In this document: positions 9,288-9,782 of the stretch, piece after piece
How the letters are laid out: each line of letters opens with the position of its first letter
Numbering within the stretch: the first letter of the stretch is position 1
Translations under genes and position numbers: made by a program
Source of the DNA: a virus
Taxonomy: Duplodnaviria > Heunggongvirae > Uroviricota > Caudoviricetes
Reading direction: 5' to 3' (one strand)
DNA length: 14,821 nucleotides
IMG/VR virus record: IMGVR_UViG_2636415906_000004
Notes under the pieces: generated by a model
The model's database searches: none
The model's input: only the letters and a program-made list of their open reading frames with translations
What the model was told of the DNA's origin: nothing

Positions 9288-9294
9288 AAAGTTA

Positions 9295-9684
9295 TCAATT
9301 ATCTCCTTTAAAGGAGTCGTATTCACCCCAATCAGCAAACCCAATCGGTCTTTTAGGGGTCTCTAAGCATAAGCGTTTTTTTCGGATTAGCAGGACATTT
9401 ATTTGAGATACATGCTGAACAAGTTCTACAGGACTGCCATCCTCCAGAGTACCAATGAAAGAAATTAATGATGGATTCCAGTAGCTTATGTCTGTGAAAT
9501 GAAATTCAATGTTTTTACCAAAGCTAGCTAGTTGTCCTCCTACCTCATACTCTTCTTCAAGTTCACGGTGAAAATCATTTATCCAGCATATAAGGCGTCT
9601 ATGAAATTCATTTGCAAGATTGTAGTCCTTTGGAACATATGGCTGTGAGTATTTGAGGAAATCATTCATGTAGTTATTTGTCAT
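9295..9684 (-). CDS. hypothetical protein (129 aa), AT-rich orphan gene in the bor position
   Basis: ATG at 9684 has AAGGA upstream; an alternative ATG at 9711 lacks an SD. Opposite strand to the lysis genes. No TM segment and no lipobox. No family recognised. Confidence 0.5.
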   Translation of the reverse strand: MTNNYMNDFLKYSQPYVPKDYNLANEFHRRLICWINDFHRELEEEYEVGGQLASFGKNIEFHFTDISYWNPSLISFIGTLEDGSPVELVQHVSQINVLLIRKKRLCLETPKRPIGFADWGEYDSFKGDN

Positions 9685-9782
9685 CAGGGCGTCCTTTACG
9701 AGCATAACCATTGTTACTTAACGGATTGAAACGCTATTAAATAACATGGTTTCTATCATAATTTCTATCCGGAGTTTTCCAT

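Follow-up and report, generated by a model that had tools for sequence, protein, structure and literature searches.

We analyzed a 14,821-nucleotide (nt) stretch of DNA of a tailed virus (Caudoviricetes; IMG/VR record IMGVR_UViG_2636415906_000004), referred to below as the window, and focused on a small AT-rich gene that lies on the minus strand between the spanin genes and an HNH endonuclease stub and encodes a DUF6173 family protein. An initial annotation, made from the sequence alone, had proposed a gene of 129 amino acids (aa) here. In the list of open reading frames (ORFs), the minus-strand ORF spans 9295–9711 and yields 138 aa if the first ATG is used. A Shine-Dalgarno sequence, AAGGA, was located at 9696–9692, 7 nt 5′ of the ATG at 9684, and the in-frame ATG at 9711 had none. 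Translation from 9684 gives the 129-aa form, whose N-terminus is MTNNYMNDFLKY.... The identical protein of Escherichia coli APEC O78, RefSeq WP_000184049.1, has the same 129-aa start, so that the proposed gene was borne out. Neither a lipobox nor a hydrophobic segment was found in the 129-aa protein (maximum Kyte-Doolittle hydropathy in a 19-residue window, 0.74), in agreement with the lack of a lipobox and signal peptide noted initially. The product is cytoplasmic and acidic.

The guanine-plus-cytosine (GC) content was 0.36–0.39 across 9301–9750, whereas the lysis genes had about 0.50 and the DNA immediately downstream 0.51, as expected from the AT-richness reported initially. That of the DUF6173 gene alone was 0.37, and values of 0.37–0.46 were obtained in all hosts examined, including the Pseudomonas loci. 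The endolysin, Rz, and Rz1 genes precede the DUF6173 gene on the opposite strand (phrog_181, phrog_1026, and phrog_1275, respectively). Rz reaches 9113, with a possible ORF start at 8781, and Rz1, whose product has a lipoprotein-like N-terminus, is embedded in and overlaps it at 9034–9252. On the other side, the HNH stub diverges from the DUF6173 gene. The position after the spanins and the divergence from the stub had both been pointed out in the initial annotation and agree with these matches.

A three-way alignment placed the end of homology to related E. coli prophages at approximately 9240–9252 and its restart exactly at the HNH ATG (9783), which delimits a cassette of about 530 bp. Two intact E. 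coli prophages share the holin-holin-GH19-Rz/Rz1 genes at 86–91% identity and continue with HNH, a P27-type small terminase, a large terminase, and a portal gene. Between Rz1 and HNH, these two prophages hold other cargo, which in strain D2 consists of a pair of hypothetical genes on the plus strand. In a related E. coli prophage, the alternative cargo is a YfbU gene oriented like the DUF6173 gene. The criteria for morons are extra DNA, deviant composition, an own promoter and terminator, and expression from the repressed prophage (PMC3594210). The cassette is extra DNA compared with related phages, placed between genes that hold other cargo there, and its base composition differs from that of the neighboring genes. 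Self-contained and holding a single gene, this moron lies where the lysis genes meet the packaging genes in a lambdoid, CPS-53-like prophage (Table 1). The bor gene of phage lambda is a moron expressed in the lysogen and located downstream of Rz on the opposite strand. The other cargo of related E. coli prophages and the use of the same slot in Klebsiella, Citrobacter, and Yersinia support the initial proposal that the window carries moron-type cargo in the slot of lambda bor.

Table 1 Features of the DUF6173 cassette and its flanks (positions are those of the window).
Feature	Position	Strand	Description	Basis
DUF6173 coding sequence	9295..9684	-	129 aa + stop, 15.2 kDa, pI 5.1, soluble	ORF/translation, Pfam, PHROG, RefSeq
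Whole cargo cassette	9253..9782		~530 bp, end of Rz1 to start of HNH	Homology breaks, GC dip
Divergent intergenic region	9685..9782	-	98 nt, DUF6173 ATG to HNH ATG; holds Shine-Dalgarno AAGGA	
Perfect hairpin, ATTGCGGGC-N7-GCCCGCAAT	9263..9287		Between the convergent stops of Rz1 (9252) and DUF6173 (9295)	
Spanin pair (left flank)	8844..9252	+		phrog_1026 at 6.5e-32, phrog_1275 at 9.5e-29, ORF list
HNH endonuclease stub (right flank)	9783..9923	+	46 codons	phrog_144; RefSeq pseudogene

The protein had initially been called an orphan and unrecognized. A remote homology search, which the initial annotation had proposed as a check, contradicted this description and returned hundreds of homologues of a catalogued family. 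The sole Pfam match of the window protein was DUF6173 (PF19670; 75.8–76.1 bits, cut-off 27), with model positions 16–101/102 covered. It also matched phrog_3306 (function unknown) at 2.4e-17, and RefSeq labels WP_000184049.1 "DUF6173 family protein". A word-indexed search detected 281 homologues at 55–99% identity, and those at 55–85% came from Klebsiella, Citrobacter, Serratia, Yersinia, Pseudomonas, Pseudoalteromonas, Aeromonas, Oxalicibacterium, Electrothrix, and Omnitrophota. A profile search against 1.84 billion representatives yielded 1,477 clusters at 50% identity (E ≤ 1e-3), and a scan of one genome per species found members with 43–76% identity in Acidobacteriota, Bacillota, Cyanobacteria, Planctomycetota, Bacteroidota, and other phyla.

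Orthologues from seven genera showed low non-synonymous change (pN 0.17–0.28) at saturated synonymous change (pS 0.75–0.94), indicating strong purifying selection on the DUF6173 protein. About 30 positions were at least 90% identical across 107 unique sequences from many phyla. The family-wide motifs EVG, FG, Y.NPSLI.F.G, L.QHVsQI..LL, and P...IGF, recognized in these 107 sequences and in a 35-sequence alignment, are all present in the window protein. In the library of papers that we searched, none named the DUF6173 family. DUF6173 is a widespread, strongly conserved, and wholly uncharacterized family. The initial annotation had left room for a spurious ORF conserved nowhere beyond this locus, or for a decayed structural gene. 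Neither applies: conservation clearly extends beyond the locus, and no decayed structural gene was recognized. A spurious ORF is ruled out by membership in the family, by conservation, and by the low level of non-synonymous change. A known defense gene was ruled out as well, since the DUF6173 protein had no match in PADLOC-DB 2.0.0 at E ≤ 0.01.

Some long family members join an N-terminal XRE-type helix-turn-helix (HTH) domain, HTH_3, through a repetitive low-complexity linker to DUF6173 at the C-terminus (L068 at 5170–6333 in a Chlorobiaceae metagenome-assembled genome (MAG); P0145 and P0150). Others (P0121, P0155, P0186, and P0219) have repetitive N-terminal extensions without the HTH domain. 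HTH and repeat extensions ahead of the domain would fit a modular unit for oligomerization, binding, or ligand sensing.

We compared the location of DUF6173 genes in other elements. In the Klebsiella, Citrobacter, and Yersinia prophages, the gene lies between the spanin and small terminase genes and is always on the opposite strand, and the endolysins, holins, terminases, and head genes differ among these prophages. In Yersinia, an Ant, KilA-N, or Rha gene is interposed between the spanin and DUF6173 genes. The IMG/VR set comprised 59 DUF6173 loci, of which 37 remained after 95% dereplication and 34 had both neighbors called. The gene was antisense to both neighbors in 16 of these 34 loci, compared with 16% of all genes when the same crude gene caller was used. 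A small terminase gene was located within three genes upstream in at least 12 of the 37 loci, lysis genes were downstream in eight, and an integrase gene was adjoining in five. DUF6173 was also found next to int at the end of the genome in the P2-like Pseudoalteromonas phage C5a, in the regulatory region and antisense to the adjacent genes in Clostridioides phage phiCDKH02, in a Serratia prophage, and in small integrase islands. In a Pseudomonas integrative and conjugative element (ICE), it lies beside a resolvase gene and is convergent with Pycsar. It further occurs on a few plasmids and as chromosomal singletons. A plasmid leading-region gene was ruled out, as only 11 of 72,556 plasmids carried DUF6173 and ssb, psiB, and ardA were not seen in the two loci examined. 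One Klebsiella prophage (L004) carries another antisense single gene inside its head module, at 3046–3390, with a Rap1a domain (PF18602); this is a second antisense moron in DUF6173-carrying Klebsiella prophages.

Genomic neighbors were compared in 72 species genomes by all-against-all clustering of up to four genes on each side, and no neighbor family was shared beyond the genus level. The Pfam and PADLOC summaries of the immediate neighbors were heterogeneous, and the 146 neighbors in Bacillota were miscellaneous small enzymes. No recurrent toxin or immunity neighbor was found among the 138 immediate neighbors and these 146. Defense-like genes accounted for 3 of the 138, all of them OLD-family nuclease genes in Methylophaga. 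Embedding in defense islands was not consistent, with isolated cases beside Pycsar and OLD genes, which argues against membership in a known anti-phage defense system. The Methylophaga MAGs (L029, L031, L035, and L036) carry two DUF6173 paralogues per genome, situated 75–105 nt downstream of, and co-directional with, a mutually homologous gene. This upstream gene encodes an OLD-family nuclease (AAA_15 + OLD TOPRIM) in the two copies scanned, and the other two copies are cut by contig ends. DUF6173 has no conserved partner gene and most likely acts alone.

Structure prediction, which the initial annotation had also suggested, was performed with AlphaFold2 using the 35-sequence alignment and gave an Sm-like barrel with a predicted local distance difference test (pLDDT) score of 84.3 and a predicted template modeling (pTM) score of 0.72. 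The model comprises a disordered N-terminus of about 20 residues, a helix at 23–41, five strands within 46–103, a well-ordered conserved loop at 104–118, and a helix at 119–127. An N-terminal helix and a five-stranded, strongly bent sheet, by which the Sm fold is defined, are both present in this model. We infer from the prediction that the protein folds into an N-terminal helix and a five-stranded Sm-like barrel with a conserved P-K-x-x-I-G-F tail. The invariant polar residues are E47 at the start of strand 1; Y68, N70, and S72 in or beside loop 3; Q90, H91, and Q94 in or beside loop 5; and K111 in the P-K-x-x-I-G-F tail. Loops 3 and 5 of Sm, LSm, and Hfq proteins line the nucleotide-binding pocket. 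By analogy, the invariant loop-3 and loop-5 residues could form a putative pocket, which serves as a lead rather than a test. A sequence search of the PDB detected no relative with a solved structure.

Next to the coding sequence, the cassette holds candidate signals at both ends. The gene's own promoter presumably lies within the divergent intergenic region. An 8-nt direct repeat, GATAGAAA, is present upstream of DUF6173 at 9769–9762 and 9757–9750, 12 nt apart; it could be an operator or a chance occurrence in AT-rich DNA. The upstream regions of the E. coli, Klebsiella, Citrobacter, and Yersinia orthologues were unalignable, and no conserved promoter was found in them. At the 3′ end, folding of the RNA of 9250–9300 gave −18 kcal/mol (z = −4.0), and none of 200 shuffled sequences was equally stable. 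The hairpin in this segment is likely a bidirectional terminator that forms the 3′ end of the cassette. It was not listed by a terminator scan because its T-tract is weak. Equally strong, non-homologous hairpins also occur 3′ of DUF6173 in the Klebsiella and Yersinia prophages, and none was found in Citrobacter. An Rfam scan detected no RNA family in the whole window.

Queries of 851 nt and 1,729 nt from the window were 100% identical to the genome of E. coli APEC O78, NC_020163.1. RefSeq annotates this region as a CPS-53-like defective prophage inserted at a tRNA-Pro gene beside yejM. The prophage has genes for an integrase, yfdP/Q/R, truncated dam and Q, two holins, GH19 endolysin, and Rz/Rz1, and these are followed 3′ of Rz1 by the DUF6173 gene, the truncated HNH gene, tail-fiber fragments, a gene for a GmrSD-type enzyme, and IS2. 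The APEC O78 prophage has lost all of its head and tail genes. At a deletion junction at approximately 9921–10040, HNH is cut after 46 codons and fused to a glycine-rich C-terminal fragment of a tail fiber, which RefSeq mislabels as a "carbohydrate kinase". An IMG/VR contig of 38.7 kb (L107) represents an intact version of the window phage, with large terminase, small terminase, full-length HNH, 100%-identical DUF6173, spanin, and endolysin genes. Its HNH protein has 116 aa, and the first 46 residues are identical to those of the window stub. This intact arrangement indicates that the HNH stub is the product of a later deletion. The full DUF6173 gene was present in 31 complete E. coli genomes, all with the same junction, and one further genome had a truncated copy.

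We consider the best overall explanation to be a moron cassette whose product has an Sm-like fold and is made in the lysogen as a stand-alone ligand binder, and we hold it tentatively, at a little less than an even chance. The DUF6173 protein would act alone, probably as a homo-oligomer. It would be expressed in the lysogen from its own weak promoter, independently of late transcription. The ligand of its pocket would be one shared by all bacteria, with RNA or a nucleotide as the most plausible candidates and a conserved protein segment as a less likely one. The element or the host might benefit, for example, if other phages were excluded or host regulation retuned. A more specific form of this proposal is that DUF6173 represents a new branch of Sm-like ring proteins that temperate phages, ICEs, and plasmids carry from phylum to phylum, whose prophage copies are expressed in antisense to the late operon, and that can bind RNA or a nucleotide signal through loops 3 and 5, with phage exclusion or post-transcriptional rewiring of the host as the outcome. 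We regard this form as unlikely; if true, the protein would be a mobile factor of lysogenic conversion that resembles Hfq or a nucleotide sponge.

Several observations weigh against a lysogen-expressed Sm-like ligand binder, mainly as regards its promoter, its fold, and its acidity. The A/T-rich upstream region ascribed to the gene in the initial annotation is present, but no sigma-70 consensus promoter was found in its 98 nt, where the best candidate agreed at 8 of 12 positions. The fold is purely predicted. Foldseek searches against PDB and BFVD gave no match at E < 1e-3, hhalign against E. coli Hfq gave a probability of 2.3%, and LSM/Hfq Pfam matches were absent even at E ≤ 10. The median pI of the family is 5.2, an acidity uncommon among RNA chaperones. 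A single allele (at least 99% identity), in one and the same decayed prophage, accounts for all 32 E. coli carriers, so that little can be concluded about selection from its retention in this species. Outside viral genomes, DUF6173 showed neither an antisense bias (14 of 69, against a background of 17.6%) nor a clear link to mobile elements, suggesting that its primary role may be cellular rather than conflict-related.

Other functions were weighed against the same evidence. An orphan immunity protein, with which a prophage protects its lysogen from polymorphic or contact-dependent toxins of competitors, would suit a stand-alone, acidic, soluble, and horizontally spread protein. On a 7.7-kb plasmid of Acinetobacter baumannii, the DUF6173 gene is co-directional with, and 3′ of, genes for a tetratricopeptide repeat (TPR) protein and a protein of SMI1/KNR4, which we take to be a classic immunity family. 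The antisense gene in the head module of DUF6173-carrying Klebsiella prophages belongs to Rap1a, presumably an immunity family of the type VI secretion system. However, neither a toxin nor a recurrent immunity family was among the immediate and Bacillota neighbors, and 43–85% identity across phyla with about 30 invariant positions is far above the conservation expected for immunity proteins, and we consider this role quite unlikely. Cross-phylum conservation would be accounted for by an invariant ligand such as a nucleotide, as in a counter-defense protein that acts as a nucleotide-signal sponge, with which oligomerizing small barrels would be compatible, or inhibits a conserved defense component and so aids the element in defended hosts. 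Defense genes do adjoin DUF6173 in places: a Pycsar pair (cyclase + PycTM) is convergent with it in an ICE of Pseudomonas oryzihabitans, each of the two Methylophaga paralogues lies 3′ of an OLD-family nuclease gene, and one neighbor is an S_4TM effector of a cyclic-oligonucleotide-based anti-phage signaling system (CBASS). Such neighbors are nevertheless rare and, in the 72 species, confined to one genus; many chromosomal copies have no mobile-element context, the gene occurs in just 3 of 50,697 records of sequenced phages, and antisense placement within late operons points to a product made in the lysogen, not at an early stage of infection. A counter-defense function is thus very unlikely in our judgment.

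The fusions of HTH_3 (XRE), repeat linker, and DUF6173 in Chlorobiaceae and metagenomic members raise the question of transcription control, in which DUF6173 would be an oligomerization or sensor module that serves HTH regulators as a co-repressor or anti-repressor partner and would affect the lysogeny-lysis decision. The location among HTH regulators and an antirepressor in phage phiCDKH02 and the convergence with KilA-N, Rha, or Ant antirepressor-type genes in Yersinia prophages are consistent with this idea. Yet only a small fraction of family members are such fusions, the neighbors include no recurrent HTH gene, the E. coli, Klebsiella, and Citrobacter copies are distant from the immunity region, and the defective E. 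coli prophage has lost most genes for lytic growth; we give a regulatory accessory little credence. A packaging-module factor acting with the small terminase or at cos/pac was suggested by the arrangement of the loci, since DUF6173 is often divergent from the small terminase gene at 70–120 nt, and directly so in at least 12 of the 37 viral loci and in the Klebsiella, Citrobacter, and Yersinia prophages. The gene is antisense to the late operon, and copies are found beside integrases and in ICEs, plasmids, and chromosomes without packaging genes. Moreover, related E. coli prophages with the same HNH and P27-type terminase lack DUF6173, and the gene is accompanied by several unrelated small-terminase families (phrog_51/2606, 641, 1206, and 83) or none, and for these reasons a packaging role, to which we assign a minimal probability, is effectively excluded.

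Other cargo was noticed elsewhere in the window. A second AT-rich cargo block (5850–7500; GC 0.30–0.38) occupies the position downstream of Q that is classic for such genes, between the truncated Q antiterminator gene (5624–5971) and the holin genes. It contains an 89-aa ORF (6186–6455; phrog_32916, weak DUF2513) and a 268-aa ORF (6653–7459; phrog_30208) whose product appears hydrophobic by eye in its C-terminal half, both without a PADLOC match. At the tRNA-Pro end, a 283-aa plus-strand ORF beside the integrase gene (1–852; GC 0.27–0.35) had no Pfam or PADLOC match and represents a further unexplained piece of cargo. At 11525–13474, beside IS2 and close to the prophage's right end, a minus-strand gene encodes a GmrSD-type type IV modification-dependent restriction enzyme (Pfam GmrSD_N + GmrSD_C; PADLOC mREase_IV, 1418 bits). 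It is a genuine defense gene of the same prophage. Remnants of an invertible tail-fiber segment occupy 10014–11430, with two opposed assembly genes (10014–10448 on the plus strand; 10420–10860, yfdK, on the minus strand) and a gp53-like fiber C-terminus on the minus strand (10882–11274), and a RefSeq recombinase stub is located just downstream.

Functions in lysogenic conversion, exclusion, and defense stem in large part from prophage morons. Such morons, and DUF6173 as a catalogued family, were already known, and the window gene is a moron carrying this domain of unknown function (DUF). The supposed orphan becomes a defined candidate: a single, partner-free gene whose product of about 130 aa shows unusual conservation across phyla. 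It recurs in the lysis/packaging hotspot in antisense to the late operon, and its product has a confidently predicted Sm-like fold with a short set of invariant residues in the putative pocket. If a phenotype were found, a function would be given to a Pfam DUF of approximately 1,500 clusters; without one, the gene would be an ordinary uncharacterized accessory gene of a decayed prophage.

We compared the cassette with known systems. The YfbU (PF03887) cargo resembles it in occupying the Rz1-HNH slot as a single gene on the antisense strand, but the two protein families are unrelated, and the likeness says no more than that this slot is a hotspot for cargo. The lambda bor gene and the DUF6173 gene are alike in map position, orientation to the spanins, single-gene cassette, and deviant composition. 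Bor is cited as an outer-membrane lipoprotein (Barondess and Beckwith 1995, cited in PMC3594210). Unlike Bor, the DUF6173 protein has no signal peptide, lipobox, hydrophobic segment, or Bor-family Pfam match. A Bor homologue was ruled out by Pfam and hydropathy, and the resemblance is positional rather than homologous. The Sm/LSm/Hfq proteins and the Sm-like N-domain of Pelota/Dom34 have no detectable sequence relation to the DUF6173 protein, which differs from them in being acidic and in having an additional conserved tail, PKRPIGF, as well as a C-terminal helix in its proteobacterial members. Compared with PF19670 and phrog_3306, the window protein showed no difference: it is a full member that carries every family-wide invariant residue.
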